A DNA stretch of 64,000 nucleotides from a virus (IMGVR_UViG_2706795139_000001), one strand, 5' to 3'; shown: positions 1 to 63,180, counted from the first letter of the stretch. The notes: a model not told the origin generated them from the letters alone. Program-made: numbers and translations.

Positions 1-150
1 ATTGCGGTCGAATGTTTCGGCGTATCATAAACAGCTTTTGAAATATCGTCGCAAACTTCCAATTTAGTAGCGCGTAAACGCTTACCGTAGAAGTTAAAAT
101 CTGCGGCCATTTTCAAAATTTGAGCTTGTTTTTCTGCGGAAATAACCATG
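1..150 (-). CDS. hypothetical protein, partial (N-terminal 50 aa; rest lies left of window)
   Basis: ATG at 150 with GGAG RBS upstream on minus strand; ORF runs off window start. Confidence 0.4.
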
Positions 151-245
151 ATAATAAAACTCCGTTAAAGGGATTAAAAACGTTTGTTATTGGCAATATT
201 GCCAGATATAACGCCGCAAATGAGTGGCGTTATAATTTGCAACAT

Positions 246-443
246 TTAACTAATCGGCATTAGGCTAGAACTAACACCACAAGCAACGGCGGCAATAAAA
301 CAAAGTAAGCCCAAACGCTTAGCTAATTTAGATTTACGTTTAAAATAATATGAATCTAAATCATTTTGAAAATAAGCGAACAATAATGAGGCCGCCATAA
401 TAAATAAGCCTAGAATTAAAGATTCAGTAGGAAAGAAAATCAT
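246..443 (-). CDS. small membrane protein (65 aa)
   Basis: ORF track; two hydrophobic segments. Confidence 0.35.
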   Translation of the reverse strand: MIFFPTESLILGLFIMAASLLFAYFQNDLDSYYFKRKSKLAKRLGLLCFIAAVACGVSSSLMPIS

Positions 444-532
444 TTTTAAAACTCCTGATTTAAGGGAAGAAAATAACTATCGCTAAACAGTTATATTATT
501 GCCCTCCCACTAGGAAGGGCAAGGTATAACTA

Positions 533-949
533 TTATTCACCTGCGGCTTGTTTTACTTCATCGGCAACGCCTAACAGTTGCGCCACGGCGTCCAGTGTTT
601 CCAATTTTGCACTTTCCAGTGATGCCAGATCGTCAACGTCTTTGATAATGCCTGAATCGATGGCATGTTTTGCAATAACACGCACATAATGCGCTTTACG
701 GATGGAACTACCACCGCCAACTTTACGCGGCTTATCGCTTTTCTGATACGCTTTCGCGCTGGTCAATTTTGAGCGAACAGACACGGGGGAGGCCGCGCCA
801 ACTGTTTTCGCAATTTCTTTCAGGCCGTCGCTGTTGGCGAACTCTAATCCGTTTTCATTAATTAGCTGTTGATACATGGTAACAGCCTGCTGGGTGTTTT
901 CTTCATTCCAAGCAAATTTTGCGGTTTTTTCGGTTTTAACGTTAGCCAT
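533..949 (-). CDS. hypothetical protein (138 aa)
   Basis: ORF track; good coding composition. Confidence 0.5.
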   Translation of the reverse strand: MANVKTEKTAKFAWNEENTQQAVTMYQQLINENGLEFANSDGLKEIAKTVGAASPVSVRSKLTSAKAYQKSDKPRKVGGGSSIRKAHYVRVIAKHAIDSGIIKDVDDLASLESAKLETLDAVAQLLGVADEVKQAAGE

Positions 950-1050
950 GATTGTAACTCCTATCGATTTAATTTAAGGGATAAGATTAACATAATGTTA
1001 ATCGTTATATACCCCGAACTACTGGGGTATATAAAAGTAACACTATAAAC

Positions 1051-1302
1051 TTATGCTACAGCTTCCCATTTTTCATTGCGCTGGGCAACCTTTACAACGT
1101 CGCCGGATTTAACCCGAACGTTATAAACGGTTTTCCCGTTGTTACTCCGTTCCGTTTCAGCGTATACCGCATCAATTACATCAAACGGCATAAGCGCCGC
1201 GCCTTTAATGCGCTCGGCCTTTCCGGTTAATTCGTCCGTTTTAGTAACGAAAGGAATAAAAACGGATTGACCAATTTTTGGCGCATTAGTAACGTTTTTC
1301 AT
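1051..1302 (-). CDS. hypothetical protein (83 aa)
   Basis: ORF track. Confidence 0.45.
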   Translation of the reverse strand: MKNVTNAPKIGQSVFIPFVTKTDELTGKAERIKGAALMPFDVIDAVYAETERSNNGKTVYNVRVKSGDVVKVAQRNEKWEAVA

Positions 1303-1530
1303 GGTATAAACTCCAATTTATTCAGTGGATTGTTCCGCATTACCTGCTAGAAAGTAACAGGTAATAAGAAAAAATCCGCTCGCCAATATAATCAATTTAA
1401 AGAACTCCACTCAGGCCGCTATATCCCAGTTAGGGGGCGGGACACATTATGGTAAGTGCCGACCGTCAAATTTTATCAAGTTATCGCTCTTATCGAACTG
1501 GGTACATCTTAAAGCCTATCGGCTAGGGTG

Positions 1531-1734
1531 TCAAACAGTTTTTTGCAGTTTTTTATGATTTTCTTTCAGGTCAATCATAATATTGCGCCAGATCATTTCT
1601 AAACCTTGCTGGCGGCCTTTCTTGTACTGCGCAAATCGGTATTTTACGGATTGCTGGGCTATTGTCAACAATTTTTTTGTTTCGCTATCTAGTGCCTTGC
1701 TAGGCTTGCCAGTTATTAAAAGCGTTTGTTTCAT
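1531..1734 (-). CDS. hypothetical basic protein (67 aa)
   Basis: ORF track. Confidence 0.35.
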   Translation of the reverse strand: MKQTLLITGKPSKALDSETKKLLTIAQQSVKYRFAQYKKGRQQGLEMIWRNIMIDLKENHKKLQKTV

Positions 1735-1911
1735 ATCGTCGATTCCTTATAATATATAAGTTTACCGCCGATAGGCTTTAAGATATACCCAATTTTTAAA
1801 GAGCGTGGCGGTAAACTTCCCGCCGTGTAGTTCGTCATTGCCGCCCTACGAGATAAATAATAGCAAATACCAAAAATGGCGCAACCTTATTTTTGTAAAG
1901 AAACGTAAGTT

Positions 1912-2253
1912 TTACGCCTTTCTATAGTCCCCCTTATTTTGGTTGTTTTCGGCTTGAGTTACTAACCGTAAGTTATCAATAAAATTATTACTAGGGTTAC
2001 GATCAATATGATCAATTACTAGTTTGCTATCTATTTTATAGTTAAATAATAACCACACAATACGATGCGCTAGGTAACGCTCTTTATTGAGCTGTACAGA
2101 CCAATAGCCATCCTTTCTTTTAGTGCCTGCTACCCCATGAAAGGCGCAACCGGGGCGGGATACTTTCCACCGTAGGCAACTGGGACTAGTTTCATCATAG
2201 TAAAGATTATCTAGCACGGTTTCTAAATCAATATCTTTTGTTAACTCAATCAT
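1912..2253 (-). CDS. HNH homing endonuclease (113 aa)
   Basis: motif HIDRNPSNNFIDNLRLVTQAENNQNK (HNH/H-N-H with AP2-like tail). Confidence 0.7.
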   Translation of the reverse strand: MIELTKDIDLETVLDNLYYDETSPSCLRWKVSRPGCAFHGVAGTKRKDGYWSVQLNKERYLAHRIVWLLFNYKIDSKLVIDHIDRNPSNNFIDNLRLVTQAENNQNKGDYRKA

Positions 2254-2817
2254 TAATATTCTCCTATTAGTTTCATTTGGTTATTATATTATACCAAAAT
2301 TATTAGCAATGTGGCTAATACAGTTTCACCGGACGCCGTCCAGCTATTGCCTAAGTTTAAAGGAAACGGGCGCGCGAATACCATAAAACCAAGCAGATAG
2401 GCAAGTAATTTTTTCATTTATATTTGCTTTGCCCTACTTGATTTTTCTAGAATCCATCAGGTGACGATAAACGGGATATCCCTTTATGATGGGATGCCTG
2501 AAAATTTTACCGCGTTAGAAAGCGTTTTAGGCGGCTTATTTTCGATTTAACAAATATTTAACAAAAGCAAAATTGAAAAATAGTTGGAAAAGGTATTGAC
2601 TTTTTAAAATCAAGACTAAACGAGTTATTTTATAAAATTAATTAATTGACTTTCGTTTACTGTTGTGTATTAGAAAGATAGCAGACTAATAATTGCTAGA
2701 ATGATAATCTTGCTGGTGGATTGTAATAGCCTGAACTATTAGCAGACTACTAATCCCGTAAAATCTCATTAGCCAACTAACTATTTCATATTATATAATA
2801 TACATATAAATTAATGA

Positions 2818-2900
2818 GAAATAATAACTATAAGAAATCGTAACCGATAGAAATAATAACTATAAAAATAATCACTACTATAATAATAACGATAAGAAAC
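2818..2900. repeat. three direct repeats of GAAATAATAACTATAAGAAAT-like 21-mer
   Basis: copies at 2818, 2850, 2878 seen directly. Confidence 0.6.
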
Positions 2901-2908
2901 TATCGGCC

Positions 2909-3047
2909 TAAGTGAGAACCACTATCATTTAAGTTATCCACAGGTTTATTAACAGCACTTTTTGACTTGACACGATAGGCGGACTTTACAACGTTTATCC
3001 ACAGACTTATCCACATGTTATCCTACTGTATAAATATACAGGGTAAA
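2909..3047. repeat. left arm of ~140-bp inverted repeat carrying DnaA boxes (TTATCCACA at 2934, 2995, 3007) and internal palindrome CTGTATAAATATACAG
   Basis: reverse complement aligns with 6376-6515 at roughly 85% identity. Confidence 0.75.
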
Positions 3048-3246
3048 AAGGTAGTGTTAACGACTGCAATTAATTTTAAGCGGCCTAAAACGCTTTCTAA
3101 CGAGCTAAACGCTGCGGGGTAATATTAAAGTAAAGCCTTCACCCGTCGCCCTGGTGGCTTCGCCGTGTTTTGCTCTTTACTATACCGCTGCGCAGTTAGC
3201 ATAAAACTAGGCGCTAGGCAAGGAAAATAAAAAGGTAAAATAAACG

Positions 3247-3276
3247 TTGCCCCTAGAAAGAAAATACCTTTATCAT
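3247..3276 (+). promoter_or_regulatory. candidate sigma70 promoter (TTGCCC-18-TATCAT) for cassette
   Basis: sequence pattern only. Confidence 0.3.
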
Positions 3277-3307
3277 TCTCCTACCGATTAACGAGGGAGG
3301 CCAACAA

Positions 3308-4294
3308 ATGAGGCTATATAAACCAGATAACGCAACCGTCTTAAAAGGTGCATTGCGCAACCTGCTGGACGGTAGCAGAACAACCAGCATTAAACACTTT
3401 GTTAACAAGGCCGAAGATATTCACCAAAATTTTTTTGATGATTTCGATGCCTATGATATGAGTAGTTTTTTGCAACTGTATAAGCAAGGGGCAACGATTA
3501 TCTTGTATAATCGGGATAATCACCTGCTTACTAGCAGGGGGCCGGATACTGATTTTATAATCGTAAAAGGTAGCACAGTAAAAGCCTATGATACTGGGGC
3601 GGGCTTAGAAGTTTTTTCAATAGAAAATTATGAAGCCAACCCCAATGATCTTTATGATATTGAGAATTTTCTTGATTCATTTTGGCGTTATTTATCCGTT
3701 GGCTGGAATCGGTCAATTGGTGACGGGTATCGTCTGGCGGCTGTAATGGCTTTTGATGATAACGGTAATTTTTTGCTACCGCCGGAATTATATGATCGTG
3801 TATATGAAGGCGATATTGTTGACGCCGGATTCTCTTTCGAAAGAGAAGAAAGTATTGGCAATATAGAAAAACATGCTGTAAATTCTAACACTCAAAGCGT
3901 TAACACTCAAATCACTGAAAACAAAGGAAAAAATACTATGACCAAGATCGCTAATATCGTTGCCGCTAATAAATCCGCTGTTGTAAATGCTGCAAAACTG
4001 GAAGCGGGTAAAATTGCATTGACTCAAATCACGAAAGTAGCGGCTAAAAAAGCGCCGTTTATGATTAAAGGTTATATTGATACGCCTATTGGTCGAGTAG
4101 TTATTGCTAACCTGCTGAGCGTAGCGGTTGACCAGTATGCCCCTAGCAACCAAAAGGCGAAAGCGGTAGCAGGTGCAGCTATGGAAGCGGCTATGTTAGA
4201 AATGGTGCAAAGTTTTAACATCGCTGAAATGATTGATGAAATGGTGAAAGGTATTGATATTTCTACTTTTACCACTAGCACCGAAAGCGAGTAA
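3308..4294 (+). CDS. hypothetical protein (328 aa), first gene of IR-flanked cassette
   Basis: ORF track; RBS GAGGGAGG upstream; no recognisable motif. Confidence 0.6.
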   Translation: MRLYKPDNATVLKGALRNLLDGSRTTSIKHFVNKAEDIHQNFFDDFDAYDMSSFLQLYKQGATIILYNRDNHLLTSRGPDTDFIIVKGSTVKAYDTGAGLEVFSIENYEANPNDLYDIENFLDSFWRYLSVGWNRSIGDGYRLAAVMAFDDNGNFLLPPELYDRVYEGDIVDAGFSFEREESIGNIEKHAVNSNTQSVNTQITENKGKNTMTKIANIVAANKSAVVNAAKLEAGKIALTQITKVAAKKAPFMIKGYIDTPIGRVVIANLLSVAVDQYAPSNQKAKAVAGAAMEAAMLEMVQSFNIAEMIDEMVKGIDISTFTTSTESE

Positions 4295-4302
4295 TAATAT
4301 TA

Positions 4303-4327
4303 AGCGGGGATTGTTACCCCGCTTTAC
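4303..4327 (+). terminator. hairpin AGCGGGGATTGTTACCCCGCT after 3308-4294
   Basis: stem-loop seen; weak T-run. Confidence 0.4.
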
Positions 4328-4359
4328 TATTCCCTTGTTAACTAATAGGAGGCTAATAA

Positions 4360-4854
4360 ATGGCTGCGGAAAAATATGGCTTCTCACTGGGAGAAGTGAG
4401 CACGGCAAAACATGATATGATCATTTTGGTCGATTGTCATACTGGCTATTGCGGAGAAGGTTGGACGGCGGAACATTTTGTTCCTGCTGGTTGTGATCTG
4501 GACGCTTTCGCTCATGAAATGGCTATTGATAATGCTTCTCGTTTTGGTAGCGATGGTTACGAAGACGAAGAAACTGGCGAATGGTATGAAAATGAAAACG
4601 TATATGCAAGCCTTTATCATTATCAGTTAAGTAAATCCGGCACATATGTAAACGGCGGCGATCCTATTAATTCCGTCATGAAATTAATTATTAAATATGG
4701 TGGCGTCGAGATAGTTGGTAACAAAGCGGTAATATACGCAAATCGATTAAAACAGCTTGTTTATATTCCTGATAATTCCCGTTGGGATGAATATGCCGTT
4801 TTACAGAAAGAACTAAAACGCTGTTTCGGCGTGGAAACATTAGAAATAGTCTAA
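4360..4854 (+). CDS. hypothetical protein (164 aa)
   Basis: ORF track; AGGAGG RBS. Confidence 0.6.
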   Translation: MAAEKYGFSLGEVSTAKHDMIILVDCHTGYCGEGWTAEHFVPAGCDLDAFAHEMAIDNASRFGSDGYEDEETGEWYENENVYASLYHYQLSKSGTYVNGGDPINSVMKLIIKYGGVEIVGNKAVIYANRLKQLVYIPDNSRWDEYAVLQKELKRCFGVETLEIV

Positions 4855-4869
4855 TGTAAAGTTTTGTAA

Positions 4870-4897
4870 AGGTCGCCTATTATGGCGGCCTTTTTTG
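4870..4897 (+). terminator. rho-independent terminator (GGTCGCC..GGCGGCC + TTTTTTG)
   Basis: hairpin plus T-run. Confidence 0.6.
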
Positions 4898-4961
4898 TTA
4901 TAATGCCTTTACACCGAAACGGTGGACTGAAAATTTTCCCTGATTTCTAGGAGGCGTTAAA

Positions 4962-5111
4962 ATGGTTATTTTTCGATCTATTCTGGCTAGTATCTTGGGC
5001 GCTATTTTATCACTGTTTGCAATAGCTTTCGGAGTTCACGTGGTTATTATTGGAGCAGGTATCGCGGGGTTTTCTTACTTGTTAGGCTGTATGACTGGTA
5101 AAGGGGAATAA
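4962..5111 (+). CDS. small hydrophobic protein (49 aa, 2 predicted TM), below ORF-track cutoff
   Basis: ATG with TAGGAGGCG RBS; translated by hand MVIFRSILASILGAILSLFAIAFGVHVVIIGAGIAGFSYLLGCMTGKGE. Confidence 0.4.
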   Translation: MVIFRSILASILGAILSLFAIAFGVHVVIIGAGIAGFSYLLGCMTGKGE

Positions 5112-5113
5112 AA

Positions 5114-5326
5114 ATGTTAAAGAATGTTTCCCTTGCCCGTTCCAAAGGTTTTAAGCTGGTGGATGTTAACACGTTCGAGCGTCCAGATTGTAAAATCGAA
5201 TATGTAGCACGCAACAAAAACGCTTTCCGTGTTACAGAAAAGAAATTTGACAAGCGCGGCAATTTGGTAGCCGAAACGGTTAAACACTTTGCCACCTTTT
5301 ACGCTGCGTTTCGTGGGGTGTTATAA
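5114..5326 (+). CDS. hypothetical protein (70 aa)
   Basis: ORF track. Confidence 0.45.
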   Translation: MLKNVSLARSKGFKLVDVNTFERPDCKIEYVARNKNAFRVTEKKFDKRGNLVAETVKHFATFYAAFRGVL

Positions 5327-5520
5327 TATGGTTACTTGTCATTTTAAAATCCGTATTAATGGGACTCCGCTTGCTGGTTGTTTTAAAGGCGAAGCTATGG
5401 GACTAGATTCTGCTTTACAAGAATTTAACAAGCGTTTACGCCATGCGGATTTTGGGGGGCTATCGAATTAGTAGCATATGGTAACGGCGTGAAAATGATT
5501 TTGAAAAGGGAGTCTAAATA

Positions 5521-5865
5521 ATGGTAATTTATGAGGGCAATCGTTTTGTTACTAATTGCCGTCCGGCATTATTAGCAAACTATTTAAACCAGCTTTCACC
5601 AGTTTATAAAGGCGTGGTTAATATCTATGAAGGCAAAGCACATTATAAAATTTCTGCCGTTGTCACCCGTGAACTAGCGTTTCAATTTTTAACTTTTGGG
5701 TCTTGTGACGTTCAGGTTATGGGGGAAGCGTTAATAGCAGAAAATGAAAATGAATTTACTGACATTTTCCGCAAAGTATGTACGGAGCGCCTGATTATGA
5801 AAGGCGCATATATTCAATCCACTGCTGAAAGTATTGAAACAGCATTTCGAAAAATTGCACAATGA
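5521..5865 (+). CDS. hypothetical protein (114 aa)
   Basis: ORF track; RBS AAGGGAG. Confidence 0.5.
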   Translation: MVIYEGNRFVTNCRPALLANYLNQLSPVYKGVVNIYEGKAHYKISAVVTRELAFQFLTFGSCDVQVMGEALIAENENEFTDIFRKVCTERLIMKGAYIQSTAESIETAFRKIAQ

Positions 5866-5908
5866 ATAGCTGGTGGCGAAAAACACAAAGCCATAAATCT
5901 AATAATAC

Positions 5909-5940
5909 CGCTGGGAAGCATTCCCAGCGTTTACGATTTG
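5909..5940 (+). terminator. hairpin CGCTGGGAAGCATTCCCAGCG + TTTACGATTT
   Basis: perfect palindromic stem. Confidence 0.5.
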
Positions 5941-5992
5941 GTAATGGCTTCACAATGATATTGATAATCATTCTCATTCTAGGAGCAATGGC

Positions 5993-6232
5993 ATGGCTGT
6001 AAGAATTTTACGATATGTAGAACGTAAAGAAACCGATATTATGCAACATCATTTAACTGATGGGCAATACGCGCAATTTTTAGAAATGCAGAAAAGCGGA
6101 GCTGATACAGCAACGCTAGGAGCGTGGATCAACTCAGTTTCAACGTGTACGCATTTTGATTCATACGGGTATACGCCAGCCGAAACCGTCCAGATCTTTG
6201 ACGACTACGAGAAAGAATACATAACAGACTAA
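5993..6232 (+). CDS. hypothetical protein (79 aa)
   Basis: ORF track; RBS TAGGAGCA. Confidence 0.45.
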   Translation: MAVRILRYVERKETDIMQHHLTDGQYAQFLEMQKSGADTATLGAWINSVSTCTHFDSYGYTPAETVQIFDDYEKEYITD

Positions 6233-6239
6233 TAATAAC

Positions 6240-6266
6240 GGGGCGCAACTATCGGCCCCGCTTTTT
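6240..6266 (+). terminator. rho-independent terminator (GGGGCGCAACTATCGGCCCC + GCTTTTT)
   Basis: GC stem plus T-run. Confidence 0.65.
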
Positions 6267-6375
6267 CTGGCCTTCCTCAAATTTCCCCTTATTAAAGTAC
6301 CTCCTCCAAAATTAAAACGCTTAGAATGCGTTTGAGAGCGTTTTAGACCTATATTAGAGTTATTCACTACGTAGG

Positions 6376-6515
6376 AATACTGTATAAATATACAGTAGGA
6401 TAACCTGTGGATAAGTCTGTTGAAAACGCCTCAAAATCGCTAGGGTTTTGTCAAGTCAAATCGTGCTGTTAATAAACCTGTGGATAACTTAAATAACAGT
6501 GTTTCTCACTTCCCT
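6376..6515. repeat. right arm of inverted repeat (DnaA boxes as TGTGGATAA at 6406, 6479)
   Basis: reverse complement of 2909-3047. Confidence 0.75.
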
Positions 6516-6690
6516 TTCTAAATGCGAATCATTCTCAGTATGTGACTCATTCGTATTCAACTCTGTAAATGATAACCGTTCTCATTCCCCTTTCTAAACG
6601 CGAATCATTATCATTCGCATTCAACTTCTCAAATGCGAATCAATCTCATTATCATTCGCATTCAGGCGAGCAGGGCAATTGCCCTGCGCT
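6505..6690. repeat. three direct repeats of CTTTCTAAAYGCGAATCA with GCGAAT..ATTCGC hairpins, then perfect palindrome GCAGGGCAATTGCCCTGC (6672-6689)
   Basis: seen directly. Confidence 0.6.
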
Positions 6691-6692
6691 TT

Positions 6693-7943
6693 TGTGCAAA
6701 TCCGACATTTGCCCCCATGGATTACGCGTGGGCGTGTATGTGCAAATCCGACCCATTTTTGGTAGTGTGCAAATCCGACCCTAAAATTTCATCCCTCCAT
6801 TTTACTAGAAATTCTAGATCATATGAACACTTAGACTGAGTACCATTACTAGTAGGAACATAAGCCCGGTAATAATCACCCTTTGAGGTAGTTCTAGCAA
6901 CACGAATATATTTTGGAAGATTGGTTGTTTTACTGTTGGTATTTTTGCGATTTCTAGCATTTTTATAGTCTGGTATTTGTCTTAGATTCTCAGGAGAGTT
7001 ATTAGTGGGATCCTGATCTATATGATCTACCTGCAACTCGGGATCAATACTGCCGTTATGCAGGCAGAAAACAATCCGAGAAACTGCTAGGGTTCCCACC
7101 CCAGATACAAAGACCACATAAGACTTCCTACCTTTTCCGTCGTCCCTTAAAGTGCCTGTATGTTTTCTTTTAGGTAATCTACTCAGCCCACTGGGACTTG
7201 ATGGGTCAATAAAAAATAAGTCTTTCATTTGTGCATATTCGATAGGTATATATCTTGACATAATAAAATTCCTCCTATGAAGTAATATTATAACAAAATT
7301 TTCGAAAGTGTGCAAGTGAAATTTTTATATTTGAAAATAACCGCCCTCCCTATAACCGCCCTATTCGAATCCTGTGGGATATGTGCAAATCCGACACGGT
7401 TTTTCTAGGATTAAGATGTGCGAATCCAATGAAATTTTTGTGACTTCGATGAGAGGGTGTGTGATTGTGTGAGTTTGGGGAGAAGTTGAGAGAGCGAGAG
7501 AAATTTAGAGGCTAGAAGGATGTGGGCGCAGGATTGGTGCGGAGCACCTGATTTGCGGGGATTTTGGGGAAGAGTTGAGATAATTTGGGAAGATTTGAGA
7601 TAGGTGCAGAAAAAGTAAAATTTTATTAGCAAAATGGGGCAAAATAGCTTGACAAGTGGAAATTCTTGTGGATCTAAAAACTCAGGCAATCATGGGCCTT
7701 CGGCCCGAAATAATGCTGCTATTTTCGGGAGATTATATGTTCCTAAAAACTTAGGCATTTGTGCAAATCCGACCAGTTTTTAAACTCCTGTCAGTGTGCA
7801 AATCCGACAGTAATTTCTGGAAATGTGTTTTGGAAAAATGTCTTCTAGAAATAACTGCCCTCCCTATAACCGCCCTGTATAGAAAACCGGCCTAAGATAT
7901 GTGACGTTGGTGAGAAACTGCCCTAGAATGCGTGCAAATCCGA
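6693..7943. repeat. dispersed array of 14-mer TGTGCAAATCCGAC (perfect at 6693, 6739, 6766, 7382, 7760, 7795; degenerate at 7418, 7932)
   Basis: exact-copy repeats counted by eye. Confidence 0.8.
6722..7315 (-). CDS. HNH homing endonuclease (197 aa) embedded in the repeat array
   Basis: motif VDHIDQDPTNNSPENLRQIP. Confidence 0.65.
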   Translation of the reverse strand: MHTFENFVIILLHRRNFIMSRYIPIEYAQMKDLFFIDPSSPSGLSRLPKRKHTGTLRDDGKGRKSYVVFVSGVGTLAVSRIVFCLHNGSIDPELQVDHIDQDPTNNSPENLRQIPDYKNARNRKNTNSKTTNLPKYIRVARTTSKGDYYRAYVPTSNGTQSKCSYDLEFLVKWRDEILGSDLHTTKNGSDLHIHAHA

Positions 7944-8295
7944 TGAATATTTTTGTGTGATCTCTAGAATTTGTGCTTATCAATTTCCTAGAAACTTAGG
8001 AGTCTAGAAGAAAGTGTTGTGCCATCCTAGCAGATGAGCGGCAACCGGTGTATCATCTTGAACGTTAATTTATCTATTCAACAGTATTAGTTTTTATATA
8101 AGTATAAGATCCCCAGGGTTCTCATATAGAGCTTTGCCCCCACCAGAAGGTCTCGTGATGTTTCTAGTAATCTTTATTAAATTACCTGTTGACTTGTCCT
8201 GTCGCTCCGTAACCTACGCTACAAGTCAGTAATTTAAGATTCCTGAACCACCACACCTTCTGTGTGGCAACTCTAAATGGTTAATTCTATTAACT

Positions 8296-8324
8296 CATAG
8301 AGTTATGATAACATACATTTAGCT
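8296..8324 (-). promoter_or_regulatory. candidate promoter TTGACA-17-TATCAT reading leftward into ORF-free 8040-8290
   Basis: minus-strand sequence ttgacagatagctaaatgtatgttatcat. Confidence 0.35.
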
Positions 8325-8389
8325 ATCTGTCAACGAGAGTTTGTATTTGAGTCTCGGTACAGGTATTGTGCACCGAGACATGCAGAGTA

Positions 8390-9274
8390 CTATAATAATT
8401 CTTGGTATGCTTTCTGATACGCCTCAGTGTCAGTAGGTGTATCTTTTGCTAACGCAATTAGTTCATCCGTTATCTGAATATTCGTATTATAACGTTGGTG
8501 GAACTCGTCTGGAATTTCTAGATATCTATTTATGAATGCTGCAGCAAGCGGTGTAACTAACCCAATTTCTAGAGATAACTTAACTTGTTTCTCATAAATT
8601 AAATATTGAGAATCAGACGGTATTGGTGGGGTTACATCAATTTTTTCTGGTTCTTTTTCTGGTAGCAATGGATTGTTATACAATGCTTCATCTGGAAGCA
8701 CAGATTTACGCTCTTTAAATATATAAGTTTCTAGATCAGATGCTTTAGACCCTGAATACACAGCAAAAACGCTAGCTTTACCTTGAGATGCCCTAACTGG
8801 TAAGTAACTAGTAGGGTAGCTCCTTAATGCATCGTGGAATGGACTTCCTGAGTATTTGTATGTATCCCCATAGAGATCATCAATATTCATTCGTTCATCT
8901 TCAAAGATATGGAAAGAGCTAAATGATGGGATAGTAAAGTATTCCATCTGTAATCCATAAACTAAGAAACGATGTGCGTATGCACTGATTTTTAAGACTG
9001 TAAATGCTTTCTCACCTTCTTTATAGGAATTGCCTTTTGAAGTAACTTGGTAACGTTTACAAAACATCTCTACTAGACGTTTCTCATTAATACCAAGAGT
9101 GGAGTACAGTCGTCCATTTAATCCTATAAGTGCATCGAACATAAATGCTAGTTTATCTTTTTCTTCTTGGGATAGTTCTGGAAATGGCAATACTTTGGCA
9201 TTAGGAACACTATTGTTCTCTTTAGGTTTTGTTTTACCAGCATTTTGTCTTAGTTTATCTTTAAAGTTATACAT
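8390..9274 (-). CDS. hypothetical protein (294 aa)
   Basis: ORF track; hairpin just downstream at about 8350-8385. Confidence 0.55.
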   Translation of the reverse strand: MYNFKDKLRQNAGKTKPKENNSVPNAKVLPFPELSQEEKDKLAFMFDALIGLNGRLYSTLGINEKRLVEMFCKRYQVTSKGNSYKEGEKAFTVLKISAYAHRFLVYGLQMEYFTIPSFSSFHIFEDERMNIDDLYGDTYKYSGSPFHDALRSYPTSYLPVRASQGKASVFAVYSGSKASDLETYIFKERKSVLPDEALYNNPLLPEKEPEKIDVTPPIPSDSQYLIYEKQVKLSLEIGLVTPLAAAFINRYLEIPDEFHQRYNTNIQITDELIALAKDTPTDTEAYQKAYQELL

Positions 9275-9353
9275 TATTATCTCCCGTTTTTAAGGTCTGG
9301 ATGACCTTCTTTTTATTTTAGAGCCTCCGTAGAGGCTCATATATTAGGAATTA

Positions 9354-9965
9354 TTAATCCTTTTTACTCTCATTAATAACAGCCCCCAATGCTTCCATAA
9401 TTGCATCTTCTAGACTTCCATGTTTATCAGGATTACTAAAATGAATAGTATAAACAGAATTCCTAGAAACTCCAGCATCCGCAGGTGCTACGCTTCGCAT
9501 ATCAGATTCAAAAGCTTCTTGGGTATGTTGCAGCTGTACAGAAGGGCCGTAATCTTCACCAAACTTATATGACTTCGTACTACTTACCACACCCCCACAA
9601 GGAACATTGTGCATATCCGATATTAATCTTTTATCGGAGTTATTCAGCATTGAGATTGTCCCTGACTGCCACGGATCTCTAATAGTCACTGGAGTACTGG
9701 GGCGGTTCACCTCAGTCTTCACAAGTTTGTACCCTGCATCGATTAGTGCATTAATCAGGTTATCCGCCGGGATGCGAGCCGTACCAAAAATCTTACGAGC
9801 ATCTTCGAGCTTACCTTCAAGATCTTTACATGCTCTAAGGTCAGTGTGTGCAAATGTTAGCTTCATAGATTTGAATTGTACAGTAGCAGTTAAATCTTTA
9901 AAGCTATAATCCCATGTGTTCAGTTCATGGTCTGGTACTACTTGAATAGGTTGTTGTGTAAACAT
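9354..9965 (-). CDS. hypothetical protein (203 aa)
   Basis: ORF track. Confidence 0.55.
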   Translation of the reverse strand: MFTQQPIQVVPDHELNTWDYSFKDLTATVQFKSMKLTFAHTDLRACKDLEGKLEDARKIFGTARIPADNLINALIDAGYKLVKTEVNRPSTPVTIRDPWQSGTISMLNNSDKRLISDMHNVPCGGVVSSTKSYKFGEDYGPSVQLQHTQEAFESDMRSVAPADAGVSRNSVYTIHFSNPDKHGSLEDAIMEALGAVINESKKD

Positions 9966-10150
9966 TATTTATTCTCCAGTTTGTCTAACAGTTTATGGGC
10001 TGCTAGGTTATATTGCTCAAGTTCACGATTAAGGATTTGGTTTTCACACTTTAGCTCTAGATTCTTATTATTAAGAATATTGCAGATCAGTAGAAGTGCT
10101 AATATAACTAGCAAGGAACCTACAAGTATTAAAAGAAAAAGAGTTTCCAT
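9965..10150 (-). CDS. small membrane protein (61 aa)
   Basis: N-terminal TM helix. Confidence 0.4.
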   Translation of the reverse strand: METLFLLILVGSLLVILALLLICNILNNKNLELKCENQILNRELEQYNLAAHKLLDKLENK

Positions 10151-10383
10151 TATTTAATTCCCATGTAACGTTTGAGATATATGACGAAGTCTTCTGCTGT
10201 ATGCTCCACACTACCTTGAGCTACAAACAACTTTAAAGCCTCACGCTGTAATTTAAGAGCAGCTAACTCACCACGTAATTTTGTTATATCTTCCGCTAGT
10301 TCTCTAGCTCTGCGCATAATAGCAAATGATACAAATGTTACAATAAATAACATAACTGCTAAAATAATTACTATGATCTCCAT
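10150..10383 (-). CDS. small membrane protein (77 aa)
   Basis: TM helix then coiled coil. Confidence 0.45.
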   Translation of the reverse strand: MEIIVIILAVMLFIVTFVSFAIMRRARELAEDITKLRGELAALKLQREALKLFVAQGSVEHTAEDFVIYLKRYMGIK

Positions 10384-10661
10384 ATTAACATCCAGCTTTT
10401 ATCATATATTTGGGCATGTTCTACTAATTCATTTATTGATGTAGAATTATCGTAGATACCCTCTAGTAAACGTTTTCTGTCAAATTTATCAACCAAATAC
10501 TCCGCGCCATTTATCACTACCATATACAGCTCTGGAACTAAGGGGTGTTTGTTTGGTATTGGACGACTACCTAAGTCTATTTCATTTTTACCCCACTCTG
10601 TTTTAAACAGTCTGTTACTAAGTGCTGCTAGTGGGTTTGACCATACAATATAGCTACTCAC
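10371..10661 (-). CDS. hypothetical protein (96 aa)
   Basis: ORF track. Confidence 0.45.
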   Translation of the reverse strand: MSSYIVWSNPLAALSNRLFKTEWGKNEIDLGSRPIPNKHPLVPELYMVVINGAEYLVDKFDRKRLLEGIYDNSTSINELVEHAQIYDKSWMLIWRS

Positions 10662-11142
10662 TACTTATCTCCATTCTTAGCTTTGAAAACTTATTATACC
10701 AAACTATATGATTATCGTCAATTACAAATTTATGGTAACATGCTGGTACGGTATAAGTTCCATAATCCGTGACACGCTGCACAACCTTGTGTGCACACAG
10801 TCGACAACCATGCCCTTCTAAATGAGATCTAGCAGTTTGCCAGTAATAACCCTTATGGTCTGGACAATAGATCTCGACTTGCTGTTGCATTGTTTTATAA
10901 TTTACACGCTCATACCCAAAGAAAGCCCCGTGAGCTGCAATGGCTTTCTTGATAAATATAAGGTTTAGCGCCTCTTGCTGAAAATCGGGATGTAGCTGTT
11001 TAATCTTAGTTCTATTAATAGATCCATCCGATTTGATGAACCTATTTATTGGAAAGTTGTTAGCTTCCTCGATTAATAGTTCATTTACTTTCTCTCTCAT
11101 ATTAGATACTCTCACAACTAAGATGGAAACATTCGTAAGCAT
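10654..11142 (-). CDS. zinc-ribbon protein (162 aa)
   Basis: CPDHKGYYWQTARSHLEGHGCRLCAH, same Cys-His ribbon as in the N-terminus of the T5orf172 endonucleases in this window. Confidence 0.5.
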   Translation of the reverse strand: MLTNVSILVVRVSNMREKVNELLIEEANNFPINRFIKSDGSINRTKIKQLHPDFQQEALNLIFIKKAIAAHGAFFGYERVNYKTMQQQVEIYCPDHKGYYWQTARSHLEGHGCRLCAHKVVQRVTDYGTYTVPACYHKFVIDDNHIVWYNKFSKLRMEISSE

Positions 11143-11380
11143 CTCCAGTAAACTCTTTATCTTGTAGTATACACTTAGCCTGGTCTTCTGGTACTACAAC
11201 ATCTAATAATTGTTGTTTACTTGGCTTTTCAGCGAATACTTTTACAAAATACTCACCATCCTGATTATACTCATTTATATCTCTAGTAAGGACATATACT
11301 TGCATTTGAAGTTCCTTGAAACATAAAAGGCCAGAACAATTAAGTCCTGGCCTCCTAAAATTAATGAAGTTGTTTACCAC
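11102..11380 (-). CDS. hypothetical protein (92 aa)
   Basis: ORF track. Confidence 0.4.
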   Translation of the reverse strand: MVNNFINFRRPGLNCSGLLCFKELQMQVYVLTRDINEYNQDGEYFVKVFAEKPSKQQLLDVVVPEDQAKCILQDKEFTGDAYECFHLSCESI

Positions 11381-11798
11381 TTCTTAACATAGTGGCCGTT
11401 TCCATAAGACCTAGCGTAGCATCACGCTTATTGATCTGTTTACCAAGTTCATCAGTACGTTTACTGATGTAAGCATTAATAGCCATATTCATAGCTGTAG
11501 CGAGATCTTCTTTGGTTATCTCTTCATCGTCTAAAGCTAATTTAGCCAAAGAATCAAATGTGCTAGAGAGTCCTATAAGATCTGAGGTTTCTCCCGCCAA
11601 AATAGGATTAATATTATCTACTGTTACTTCTAGCATGGAGTTGACAATATCTTCACCGTCTATTAGACCAGTTTCAATATTACTCTCCCACTCCTTCATC
11701 TGCTCCAATAATGGATTTTTCTTTTCTGTCATGGTAGAGGTTTCCTGTGTCAGTCGGTAAGAAGGATGATTGAGCTTTAGGCGGATGTTGCTTAGCAA
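11361..11798 (-). CDS. hypothetical acidic protein (start uncertain; longest ORF overlaps upstream gene)
   Basis: ORF track. Confidence 0.4.
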   Translation of the reverse strand: MLSNIRLKLNHPSYRLTQETSTMTEKKNPLLEQMKEWESNIETGLIDGEDIVNSMLEVTVDNINPILAGETSDLIGLSSTFDSLAKLALDDEEITKEDLATAMNMAINAYISKRTDELGKQINKRDATLGLMETATMLRSGKQLH

Positions 11799-12141
11799 TC
11801 CAGTTAAGAATCAGCACGCGACTAGGAACAATATCGGTGTTATACCAAAAATCGTGAACCCATTGACGAGCATCTTCAAACTTACCAAATTTATATGCTT
11901 TCTTAAACAATTCAAATCCAAAACAATCTGGTGTAAAGTCTACTTCGCGATATTGAATTACTTTAGAACCAGTTAGGTCTTGGATCGCTGCATTAATTTC
12001 TGTATGCGAGAACTTTGTTTCATGAAACTTATTAAAGAATCGGTAGTTGAAGCGTCCGTTCGTTTCGACAAACAACTGGATGAAAAGATCGTTAAATTGG
12101 TTATCAAACCAGTAATTCTGTAGTTGTTGTAGTGCTGTCAT
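11680..12141 (-). CDS. hypothetical protein (153 aa)
   Basis: ORF track. Confidence 0.45.
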   Translation of the reverse strand: MTALQQLQNYWFDNQFNDLFIQLFVETNGRFNYRFFNKFHETKFSHTEINAAIQDLTGSKVIQYREVDFTPDCFGFELFKKAYKFGKFEDARQWVHDFWYNTDIVPSRVLILNWIAKQHPPKAQSSFLPTDTGNLYHDRKEKSIIGADEGVGE

Positions 12142-61721: not shown

Positions 61722-63180
61722 CGTGCAAGCTGTAGTGTTGAAGATGCTTCTAGCTTCCGAACAGAAGCAAATAGCATTGGAAACATTCTCAAAACTGCAT
61801 AAAGATCATTTTAATGACGCTTTCTCCTCAATTTACCAAGCCGTCCAGAATTATTATAAAAAATATAACACAATGCCGTCCATTGACGCACTGATGCTTG
61901 AGGCTAATAGGAACGCCCGCCTTTCTCAAGCTCTAGTCGTTTTAGCTAACACTCAAATTCCAGAAGTTAGCATGGAACAGGCACTTGAAGTCCTAGAGGC
62001 CGAGTATACGCAGGATTTATTCCTGAAGCTTCTAGAAACAGACGTGCTTCAAGATTTAACAATGCTGGATCAGGGAGAAATTCTTAACCGAGTTGCCTCC
62101 CTTCACTTAAAATTAGAAGAGAAAGTAACGAATACTGGAAAAGTATTCAACGCAGATAACATGCGTATTTTCCAGAGAGAAGAAGATACCAAACTGAATT
62201 TAATCGCTCTTGGTATTTGTAATGAGTTCGACGCTCAAATTGGTTTAGCTCGCACAGAAACGTTACTGCTTGGTGGTTGGCGTGGTACTGGTAAATCCAT
62301 TATCTGTTCAAACATACAGGTTCAGCAATATTTGAATGGAGATATTGCTCCATACTTCTCAATTGAGATGAAAGAACATGAAGTATTTAGACGTAATCTA
62401 GCCATGTTAGCTGGTGTATCAGCACTAGCAATGCGTAATAATACTCTAGAAGGTGCAGCTCTGTTGAGATTAGCCAGAACTAGAGCTAGGATGTTTAATG
62501 GTGGTGAAGAGCTTTTCGATAACTTCGTTAAACAGTACACAATGGCTAAGATGAGTGATTTCTACGATATGGAAAGTAAGCTAATAGAAGGGTATGAACT
62601 ACATACTCCTATGATCATCGTTTACGATCCTGAACTGTCTATTACAACAGTTGACGTAGAATTAAATAAATTAGTTGCTAGATATGGGGATAAAGTTACA
62701 GTAGCTTTACTTGACTATATTAACCAAACCCGACTTCCAGATTCTAAAACCATTGATATGTATGACTGGAAAGAACAGATGGTTGTTAGCTCGTCTTTCA
62801 AATCCCTCTGCCAGAAACATAACGTGGCTGGTGTAGCTCCTTACCAGATTGATCAAGATGGTAGAACACGTATGTCAAAAGGGATTCTTGATTCCGCAGA
62901 CATGGCTGCTAATCTTAATGCTGCAAAAGCTGATAATGGTCAAGGTGCTATTATGTTTGACTTCGTTAAGACCCGTTCTTCTGATAGCGTGAAGTTTATG
63001 CCTAAAATGAACTGGGAAACCCTGCGGATGGATAACACTACCAACCTAGCAATGGAAGATATATCTCAAATGGAAGCTGAGTTCGTTATCCCTATTGAGA
63101 AGGATAAGCCAGCTCAATCTAAACGTGCTAAGAAAGACAAAGCTGAAAATTCAACAGGTGAACAGGCCAGCGATATATGA
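61714..63180 (+). CDS. RecA-fold replicative helicase candidate (DnaB-like C-terminal domain, 488 aa)
   Basis: Walker A GGWRGTGKS; position between ligase and primase. Confidence 0.55.
   Translation: MFNVQAVVLKMLLASEQKQIALETFSKLHKDHFNDAFSSIYQAVQNYYKKYNTMPSIDALMLEANRNARLSQALVVLANTQIPEVSMEQALEVLEAEYTQDLFLKLLETDVLQDLTMLDQGEILNRVASLHLKLEEKVTNTGKVFNADNMRIFQREEDTKLNLIALGICNEFDAQIGLARTETLLLGGWRGTGKSIICSNIQVQQYLNGDIAPYFSIEMKEHEVFRRNLAMLAGVSALAMRNNTLEGAALLRLARTRARMFNGGEELFDNFVKQYTMAKMSDFYDMESKLIEGYELHTPMIIVYDPELSITTVDVELNKLVARYGDKVTVALLDYINQTRLPDSKTIDMYDWKEQMVVSSSFKSLCQKHNVAGVAPYQIDQDGRTRMSKGILDSADMAANLNAAKADNGQGAIMFDFVKTRSSDSVKFMPKMNWETLRMDNTTNLAMEDISQMEAEFVIPIEKDKPAQSKRAKKDKAENSTGEQASDI

Follow-up and report, generated by a model that had tools for sequence, protein, structure and literature searches.

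The 64,000-nucleotide (nt) stretch of viral DNA analyzed here (IMGVR_UViG_2706795139_000001; the window) holds at positions 2909–6515 a cassette of rightward genes bracketed by two inverted arms, each of which carries DnaA boxes and a palindrome. We find that this region belongs to the T5-like Salmonella phage Shivani, where it forms the right-hand pre-early operon, transcribed rightward, within the terminal repeat that is first to enter the cell. The arms themselves are an already-published repeat architecture, the ordinary first-step-transfer (FST) and injection stop signal (iss) layout of Demerecviridae. To the published description of the arms we add that their palindrome, judged by its sequence, appears to be a near-consensus LexA-type box abutting a pair of DnaA boxes. 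Because a documented feature of T5-like phages has been rediscovered, it represents no new kind of element; the LexA-operator reading, together with an inversion of the segment between the arms, is a modest but directly testable addition.

Identity of the region and architecture of the arms

Window positions 2700–6800 gave a 100% full-length megablast match to Shivani (KP143763.1, Tequintavirus). The window corresponds to record positions 3450–67449, so that subtracting 3449 from a Shivani record position gives the window position. In the Shivani annotation the terminal repeat occupies record 1–11123 (11,123 bp) and ends at window position 7674; the arms and cassette, at record 6358–9964, fall within it, to the right of dmp, A1 and A2, three leftward genes that precede the left arm. 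Seven rightward hypothetical genes, CPT_Shivani10–16, are annotated between the arms, and the genes outside run leftward. A preliminary description of this DNA had drawn an analogy to the T5 injection-stop region and had placed the cassette at the distal end of the first-injected DNA. The region proves to be the actual orthologue in a T5-like phage, and its position inside the terminal repeat agrees with the proposed placement. Also left of the left arm, and within the repeat regions, is an HNH homing endonuclease gene (1912–2253, minus strand).

On motif content, each arm reads as an ordered array of putative host-protein binding motifs: in the left arm, an outer conserved block comes first, then two DnaA pairs separated by a spacer that includes a conserved TTGAC, and then the LexA-type box. 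All five perfect TTATCCACA boxes in the window lie inside the arms (2934, 2995 and 3007 on the plus strand, 6406 and 6479 on the minus strand), where 0.69 would be expected by chance in 64 kb and where none of 100 shuffles reached five. Together with three boxes that carry two mismatches (TTATTAACA at 2946 and 6467, TTTTCAACA at 6418), they make up eight DnaA/DnaA* boxes, four on the same strand in each arm, arranged as two pairs per arm with 3 bp within every pair. The two arms are 92% complementary over 63 nt in their outer parts (2910–2972 vs 6449–6511) and 81% over 62 nt in their inner parts (2995–3056 vs 6365–6426); overall identity is 79% including gaps in a global alignment of 2909–3047 with 6376–6515, and 82% when aligned with flanks by MAFFT. 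The preliminary figure of about 85% was thus a fair estimate (79–92% measured, above the 70% that had been set as its refutation threshold), and perfect DnaA boxes in each arm, three left and two right, as well as one palindrome per arm, are present as it had reported.

Davison has described the same elements in T5 under the title 'Phage T5 two-step injection' (bioRxiv 10.1101/866236): IRC-spacer-IRD at T5 6022–6152 (Repeat Region 2), and IRD'-spacer-IRC' at T5 9332–9462, the start of Repeat Region 3. That preprint reports that nearly all of 25 T5-like phages, Shivani included, have eight DnaA/DnaA* boxes with 3 bp between the members of each pair; that the genes between the repeats are highly variable; and that Type 4 phages have one recognizable repeat copy. 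It also puts forward the hypothesis that membrane-bound DnaA on these boxes halts injection, which is the pause role that the preliminary description had suggested for them, and notes that experimental proof of two-step transfer exists only for T5 and BF23. In our blastn searches the T5 arms were placed at 6098–6234 and 9411–9542, 79–80% identical to the Shivani left arm, and the T5 GenBank/RefSeq entries annotate 9140–10149 as 'injection stop signal (iss)' (misc_feature), with promoters on both sides of the left arm. We see no structural difference between the two architectures: the element is the same and sits in the orthologous position, as an inverted repeat of ~131–140 bp with four DnaA/DnaA* boxes per arm, and in both phages the arms flank rightward pre-early genes and direct repeats run from the right copy to the end of the terminal repeat. 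Heusterspreute et al. in 1987, Wang et al. in 2005 and Davison in 2015 reportedly did earlier work on the T5 repeats, which Davison cited in 2020.

The preliminary description had presented the region as unusual and had named inverted repeats at the same place in all T5-like genomes as the finding that would make it ordinary. We found the arms in 543 phage records, usually in two places per record and in four where both terminal repeats are included, and we therefore regard the region as ordinary iss architecture.

The palindrome and its conservation

The palindrome CTGTATAAATATACAG occurs once per arm, at 3026 and 6380. The SOS-box (LexA operator) consensus of E. coli is TACTG(TA)5CAGTA, and the two arm sites approach it closely (Table 1). 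When the window was scored by heterology index, the right box was the best and the left box the second best site in 64 kb (training sites 0.3–9.3, window median 32.8), using a matrix built from 19 E. coli operators. The two arm sites are also the only AT-rich CTGT-N8-ACAG matches outside coding sequence in the window. Two further CTGT-N8-ACAG matches, at 62302–62319 and 62633–62652 (index 10.1 and 7.0; 330 bp apart), lie within a DNA helicase gene and are probably due to chance. In each arm the LexA-type box forms the cassette-proximal end, 9–11 nt from the inner DnaA pair. The likeness to the LexA operators of Gammaproteobacteria extends to the CTGT-N8-ACAG core, the AT-rich spacer, the TA flanks and a score in the range of E. 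coli operators. Such operators are also used by temperate phages and colicin plasmids; the Shivani boxes differ in that they occur in a strictly virulent phage, stand off conserved promoters and are fused at fixed spacing to a DnaA pair. Our literature search, whose scope did not extend to Heusterspreute 1987, Wang 2005 and Davison 2015, found no link between LexA and T5-like phages, and the text of the Davison preprint (bioRxiv 10.1101/866236) contains no occurrence of LexA or SOS. The preliminary description, too, had missed the fit of the palindrome to a LexA box.

When 19 arms from ten genera were aligned, conservation was highest in the block TTATCCACA-GAC-TTATCCACA-GG-TTATCC-TACTGTATAWWTATACAGTA, which spans the inner DnaA pair and the palindrome. 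As a control for circularity, we gathered 39 further loci via the A2 protein and then located the arms with a query that lacked the palindrome: CTG[TG]-N8-[AC]CAG was kept in 62 of the 67 arms so located, including every iss-proximal arm, and the five exceptions were all left arms in which ACAG had changed to ACAA. Over 48 distinct sequences, conservation was 98% in the half-sites and 94% in the spacer, and it fell to 69% in the DNA just beyond the box. The most distant relatives, found via A1 (32–42% identity), were Proteus phage Stubb and Vibrio phages Chester, pVp-1, SJ1 and 70E34-1b. The same composite, with 9–11 nt from DnaA pair to CTGT, is present in all of these except 70E34-1b, which instead has an inverted pair of boxes, each beside one TTATCCACA. 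Several of these distant Proteus and Vibrio phages carry the identical 16-mer CTGTATAAATATACAG; in SJ1 and Chester, a single composite was seen in scans.

The composite pattern was absent from 185,579 bacterial and archaeal species genomes, bar one 3-kb contig of T5-like DNA, and in IMG/VR it was confined to contigs of 103–123 kb. A host origin of the DnaA+LexA composite was rejected, the sole hit among the species genomes being a mis-binned phage fragment. That contig (RZZU01000077.1, 3015 bp, labeled 'MAG: Clostridia bacterium') is 80–93% identical to the Shivani FST region and has both arms around a short cassette that lacks the 011 and gp11 genes. T5-like FST DNA or an A1 gene, 80–92% identical to Shivani, also turned up in the records of Campylobacter phages C13 and A148 and of Listeria phage LM 4-11-1, whose host labels, or the records themselves, look doubtful.

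The center of the palindrome, ATAAATAT, is asymmetric and has the same absolute orientation in both Shivani copies (3026–3041 and 6380–6395) though the arms are inverted. The central AA/TT pair flips as a unit among phages (38 to 10), which suggests gene conversion or repeated inversion acting on the palindrome core.

Possible roles of the arms

Since injection halts without phage protein synthesis, a cis-acting stop or hold element is limited to proteins already in the cell. We propose that the arms would recruit pre-existing DnaA, which is largely membrane-associated, and LexA onto the just-injected DNA, and that a nucleoprotein complex would assemble at the distal end of the first-step DNA. 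Such a complex could hold or organize the DNA where it enters and keep the pre-early operon insulated until second-step transfer is triggered by A1 and A2. The right arm would be the functionally important copy and the left arm a dispensable duplicate, which may have allowed inversion of the cassette and exchange of its gene content during evolution. The part of this statement that concerns identity, i.e., that we are looking at the T5-type repeat region of Shivani, is near certain; for the statement as a whole, in which a host-protein complex on the distal FST DNA holds or organizes it and shields the operon until A1 and A2 act, we see the chances as evenly balanced. That the palindrome is a genuine high-affinity LexA operator fused to the DnaA pair, so that T5-like phages would load both DnaA and LexA onto injection-stop DNA, is a tentative idea that we regard as rather doubtful.

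Three observations favor the right arm over the left: a published T5 deletion keeps the right arm, Klebsiella and Pectobacterium phages have a truncated left arm, and ACAG has been lost in left arms only. The deletion in question, 'from hegG to 017', leaves T5 viable with small plaques (2026 preprint, Boulanger/Rossier laboratory). By mapping the junction primers onto T5, we find that it spans ~5394–9160 and thus removes the left arm, the 011 promoter and the whole cassette while keeping the right arm and the rest of the iss, a dispensability that the preliminary description had not noticed. This mutant offers a clean background with one copy left to mutate. The open problem that the finding touches is how T5 stops after injecting 8% of its genome. 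With the palindrome conserved alongside the DnaA pair in phages from those of Escherichia to those of Vibrio, the LexA reading would supply, beside DnaA, a second host factor that is specific and cheap to test. LexA is destroyed once DNA damage activates RecA, and the A1 nuclease of T5-like phages shreds the host chromosome within minutes. If the reading is true, loading of LexA and DnaA would amount to a host-state sensor in a strictly virulent phage and would give a concrete molecular handle on the long-unexplained two-step injection.

Several points weigh against this proposal. It is not obvious how proteins sitting on DNA that has already entered would stop the DNA that follows as it is pushed in. 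In A2 mutants, host DNA is degraded and second-step transfer still fails (bioRxiv 10.1101/866236; 2026 preprint); loss of LexA after damage is therefore not sufficient for restart, and LexA cleavage as a simple timer is unlikely to be enough. The dLdR mutant was scored for viability and not for two-step transfer, and the 2023 and 2026 papers that repeat the description of the repeats and DnaA boxes both state that their role has never been tested. The heterology scores depend on the 19 operators from which the matrix was built. Finally, a classical operator role for the LexA-type boxes is not supported because they overlap no conserved promoter: the left box lies ~205 bp upstream of the -35 element of the rightward operon, the right box lies 3' of the terminator, and a leftward promoter-like match at 3060–3033 is weak and not conserved in T5.

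The arrangement of the arms would also suit a role in transcription, in which they control or insulate two divergent pre-early operons with DnaA and/or LexA acting as repressor or roadblock, for example by keeping RNA polymerase that transcribes the rightward operon from continuing into the injection-stop DNA, and play no part in halting injection. The left arm does lie between the divergent pre-early units and the right arm just 3' of the operon terminator, the LexA-type box is always at the cassette-proximal arm end, and A1 is known from published work to shut off pre-early promoters. However, neither box overlaps a mapped promoter, the left arm can be deleted, and the most constrained copy is the right arm, which adjoins the iss repeats rather than a promoter; we think this explanation unlikely. 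Somewhat less probable in our estimation is that the LexA likeness is coincidental and that the palindrome and neighboring repeats are recognized by an A2 dimer, or by A1/A2, as a release or cut site. All family members have A2, a dimeric DNA-binding protein that second-step transfer requires, and cleavage at palindromes in this region is part of Davison's restriction model (bioRxiv 10.1101/866236). Yet the 16-mer CTGTATAAATATACAG is identical in phages whose A2 proteins are just ~40% identical, which is easier to reconcile with an invariant host factor than with a phage protein that co-evolves. Where variation occurs, it affects the spacer rather than the CTGT/ACAG half-sites, as expected for LexA, and the right-arm site agrees with the LexA consensus at all but one of its 20 positions.

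Two further explanations were considered. The arms might lack any binding function and simply serve as homologous anchors for inversion and exchange of the cassette among co-infecting T5-like phages, as the variable length of the inter-arm segment (1.6–4.6 kb, with genes present or absent among close relatives), the inversion of the 011-to-gp11 pair relative to A1/A2 in Sugarlandvirus and Hongcheonvirus, and the flipping of the asymmetric AA/TT core would all allow. Anchors, however, would have no need for DnaA pairs at fixed spacing or for a consensus LexA box. The non-coding DNA is better conserved than the flanking genes, and the one copy in Type 4 phages and the one composite in Vibrio phages SJ1 and Chester could not mediate inversion; we judge the idea improbable. 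The eight DnaA-type boxes in two oppositely oriented arrays also recall oriC, and the arms might accordingly be pictured as a replication origin that depends on DnaA or as a sink by which host DnaA is titrated. In oriC, datA and DARS, closely spaced DnaA boxes of the same orientation lie 2–3 bp apart in two arrays of opposite orientation. The Shivani boxes share the close spacing, the common orientation within an array and the opposition of the two arrays; unlike those of oriC, datA and DARS, the arrays are 3.3 kb apart and their location is not a mapped origin. An origin, which the preliminary description had entertained, is unlikely because T5 origins map near the genome center, and during first-step transfer the replication genes of the phage have yet to enter the cell. 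No obvious AT-rich 13-mer unwinding element was noticed, no systematic search having been made for one. As for a sink, eight boxes per terminal repeat are few next to those of the host, whose DNA is in any case being destroyed. Origin and sink taken together seem to us very improbable.

The inter-arm segment and neighboring features

The gene pair from 011 to gp11 is opposite in strand to A1/A2 in Markadamsvirinae. In Sugarlandvirus (Klebsiella) and Hongcheonvirus (Pectobacterium), the homologous pair is on the A1/A2 strand, still between the arms, and the A2-proximal arm is truncated to the part that contains the DnaA pair and LexA-type box. Davison described the Klebsiella and Pectobacterium genes as unrelated replacements whose reading direction is opposite (bioRxiv 10.1101/866236); our homology searches indicate that some of them are homologous to 011 and gp11 but inverted. 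The simplest route to this arrangement would be recombination of one inverted arm with the other. Inverted repeats around a gene segment that occurs in both orientations across a family recall the Hin/Gin/Cin invertible segments, insertion sequences (IS) and composite transposons. Unlike Hin/Gin/Cin or IS elements, the Shivani segment has no invertase or transposase inside or adjacent to it, and its inversion distinguishes subfamilies rather than acting as a switch. Pfam and PHROGs revealed no recombinase or transposase among the seven cassette proteins, the neighbors being HNH homing endonucleases, and we read no target-site duplication at the arm ends, where the flanks (ATCGGCCT on the left, CCCTTTCT on the right) are unrelated. 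An IS element or an invertase-driven switch was rejected on these two grounds, in line with the preliminary view that this is neither a classic IS nor an invertible segment.

Table 1. Features of the Shivani pre-early region, in window coordinates (aa, amino acids; orthology by tblastn).
Feature	Position	Strand	Remarks
Left arm	2909–3047	+	Inverted repeat; T5 IRC-spacer-IRD, Repeat Region 2 (published name); in 19-arm alignment
Left outer DnaA pair	2934–2954	+	TTATCCACA (2934–2942), 3 bp, TTATTAACA (2946–2954, 2 mismatches)
Left inner DnaA pair	2995–3015	+	TTATCCACA (2995–3003), GAC, TTATCCACA (3007–3015)
Left LexA-type box	3024–3043		TACTGTATAAATATACAGGG; core CTGT-N8-ACAG at 3026–3041; 17/20 consensus positions; heterology index 3.81
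Leader and promoter of rightward pre-early operon	3048–3307	+	-35 TTGCCC 3247–3252; -10 TATCAT 3271–3276
gp10, 328 aa	3308–4294	+	Orthologue of T5.011 (77% aa identity); Pfam DUF7566 as single domain match
gp11, 164 aa	4360–4854	+	No T5 counterpart; homologues in Bf23 and in Klebsiella, Pectobacterium and Pantoea phages
Intrinsic-terminator-like hairpin after gp11	4868–4903	+	
gp12, 49 aa, membrane protein	4962–5111	+	Orthologue of T5.013 (63%)
gp13, 70 aa	5114–5326	+	Orthologue of T5.014 (93%)
gp14, 47 aa	5328–5471	+	Shivani annotation; not found in 37 other cassettes compared
gp15, 114 aa	5521–5865	+	Orthologue of T5.015 (86%), Ung-dependent nickase according to papers
Possible 46-aa open reading frame, unannotated	5862–6002	+	Hydrophobic C-terminus; 82–98% conserved in seven other compared cassettes
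gp16, 79 aa	5993–6232	+	Common to Seafire-type phages only; absent from T5
GC-rich hairpin then T run, end of rightward operon	6239–6266		Shivani terminator at record 9688–9709
Right arm	6376–6515	-	T5 IRD'-spacer-IRC', first element of Repeat Region 3 (injection stop signal region)
Right LexA-type box	6378–6397		TACTGTATAAATATACAGTA; 19/20 consensus positions; heterology index 0.94
Right inner DnaA pair	6406–6426	-	TTATCCACA (6406–6414), TTTTCAACA (6418–6426)
Right outer DnaA pair	6467–6487	-	TTATTAACA (6467–6475), TTATCCACA (6479–6487)
Rest of injection-stop repeat region	6490–7952	+	Direct repeats crossing terminal-repeat end (7674)

The cassette consists of accessory genes for host takeover, is variable in composition and has a promoter and a terminator of its own. 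Among 38 distinct versions, the inter-arm segment ranges from 1.6 to 4.6 kb, and genes of the 011 and gp11 types come and go. The rightward open reading frames of 328, 164, 49, 70, 114 and 79 aa given in the preliminary description, and the leftward flanks, are all present, along with the 47-aa gene and the possible 46-aa frame, which may be a small membrane protein gene missed by the Shivani annotation or may owe its matches to DNA conservation alone. The claim that none of these proteins has a recognizable domain held for all but the 328-aa protein, whose match to DUF7566 was the only family match that Pfam returned for the cassette. Homologues of that protein, gp10, are recognizable in Pantoea, Erwinia, Klebsiella and Pectobacterium phages; its predicted structure has a moderate pLDDT (the confidence score of the prediction) of 62 and gave uninformative fold matches. 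The structure of gp11 was predicted confidently (pLDDT 85), and the model has no meaningful neighbor in the PDB and, among viral proteins, only uncharacterized phage proteins as neighbors, mostly from Demerecviridae.

The suggestion that the cassette encodes pre-early host-takeover products fits what has been found for the T5 orthologues: 011, 013 and 015 are toxic in E. coli, where 011 disorganizes the nucleoid and 013 leads to lysis, and 015 is a nickase dependent on Ung (2026 preprint, Boulanger/Rossier laboratory). In the databases, it is the 70-aa T5.014 family that bears the name 'endonuclease nicking abasic sites generated by host Ung' (RefSeq YP_006842.1 from T5 and YP_009194657.1 from Shivani, Seafire gp014 and PHROG 4227). 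The cloning primers for '015' match the 114-aa protein and not the 70-aa one, and the name on the T5.014 family is probably an off-by-one annotation transfer that has spread through the databases.

The promoter of the rightward operon is homologous to one annotated in T5 at 6411–6489, and the promoter upstream of T5 011 has been characterized experimentally. The leader in which it lies has 94% identity between Shivani, T5 and Bf23, includes long invariant stretches and is far better conserved than the 011 protein that follows. Outside Tequintavirus, only the promoter, the ribosome-binding site and a short hairpin motif are conserved. Rfam gave no match to the leader in a search of 1–12000, and folding z-scores were +1.0 and +0.8 for the two strands. 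A structured RNA gene in this near-invariant 230-bp leader was rejected on the basis of Rfam, folding scores and conservation pattern, and the segment is a promoter and leader.

Beyond the right arm, GCGAATCATTNTCA is repeated in three copies (6524–6648) and GTGCAAATCCGA in seven (6694–7943). The latter array is split by an HNH homing endonuclease gene (6722–7261, minus strand), with three copies before it and four after, and with this insertion the right arm lies farther from the end of the terminal repeat than in T5.

Proteins similar to A1 (query, record 1931–3598), with 28–40% identity over ~85% of its length, were found in phages of Rhizobium, Agrobacterium, Caulobacter, Rhodobacter, Nostoc, Flavobacterium and Cellulophaga, some of which have genomes of just 36–60 kb. 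A recent preprint calls A1 a hallmark of Demerecviridae; given these matches in phages of other hosts, A1 is not confined to that family.

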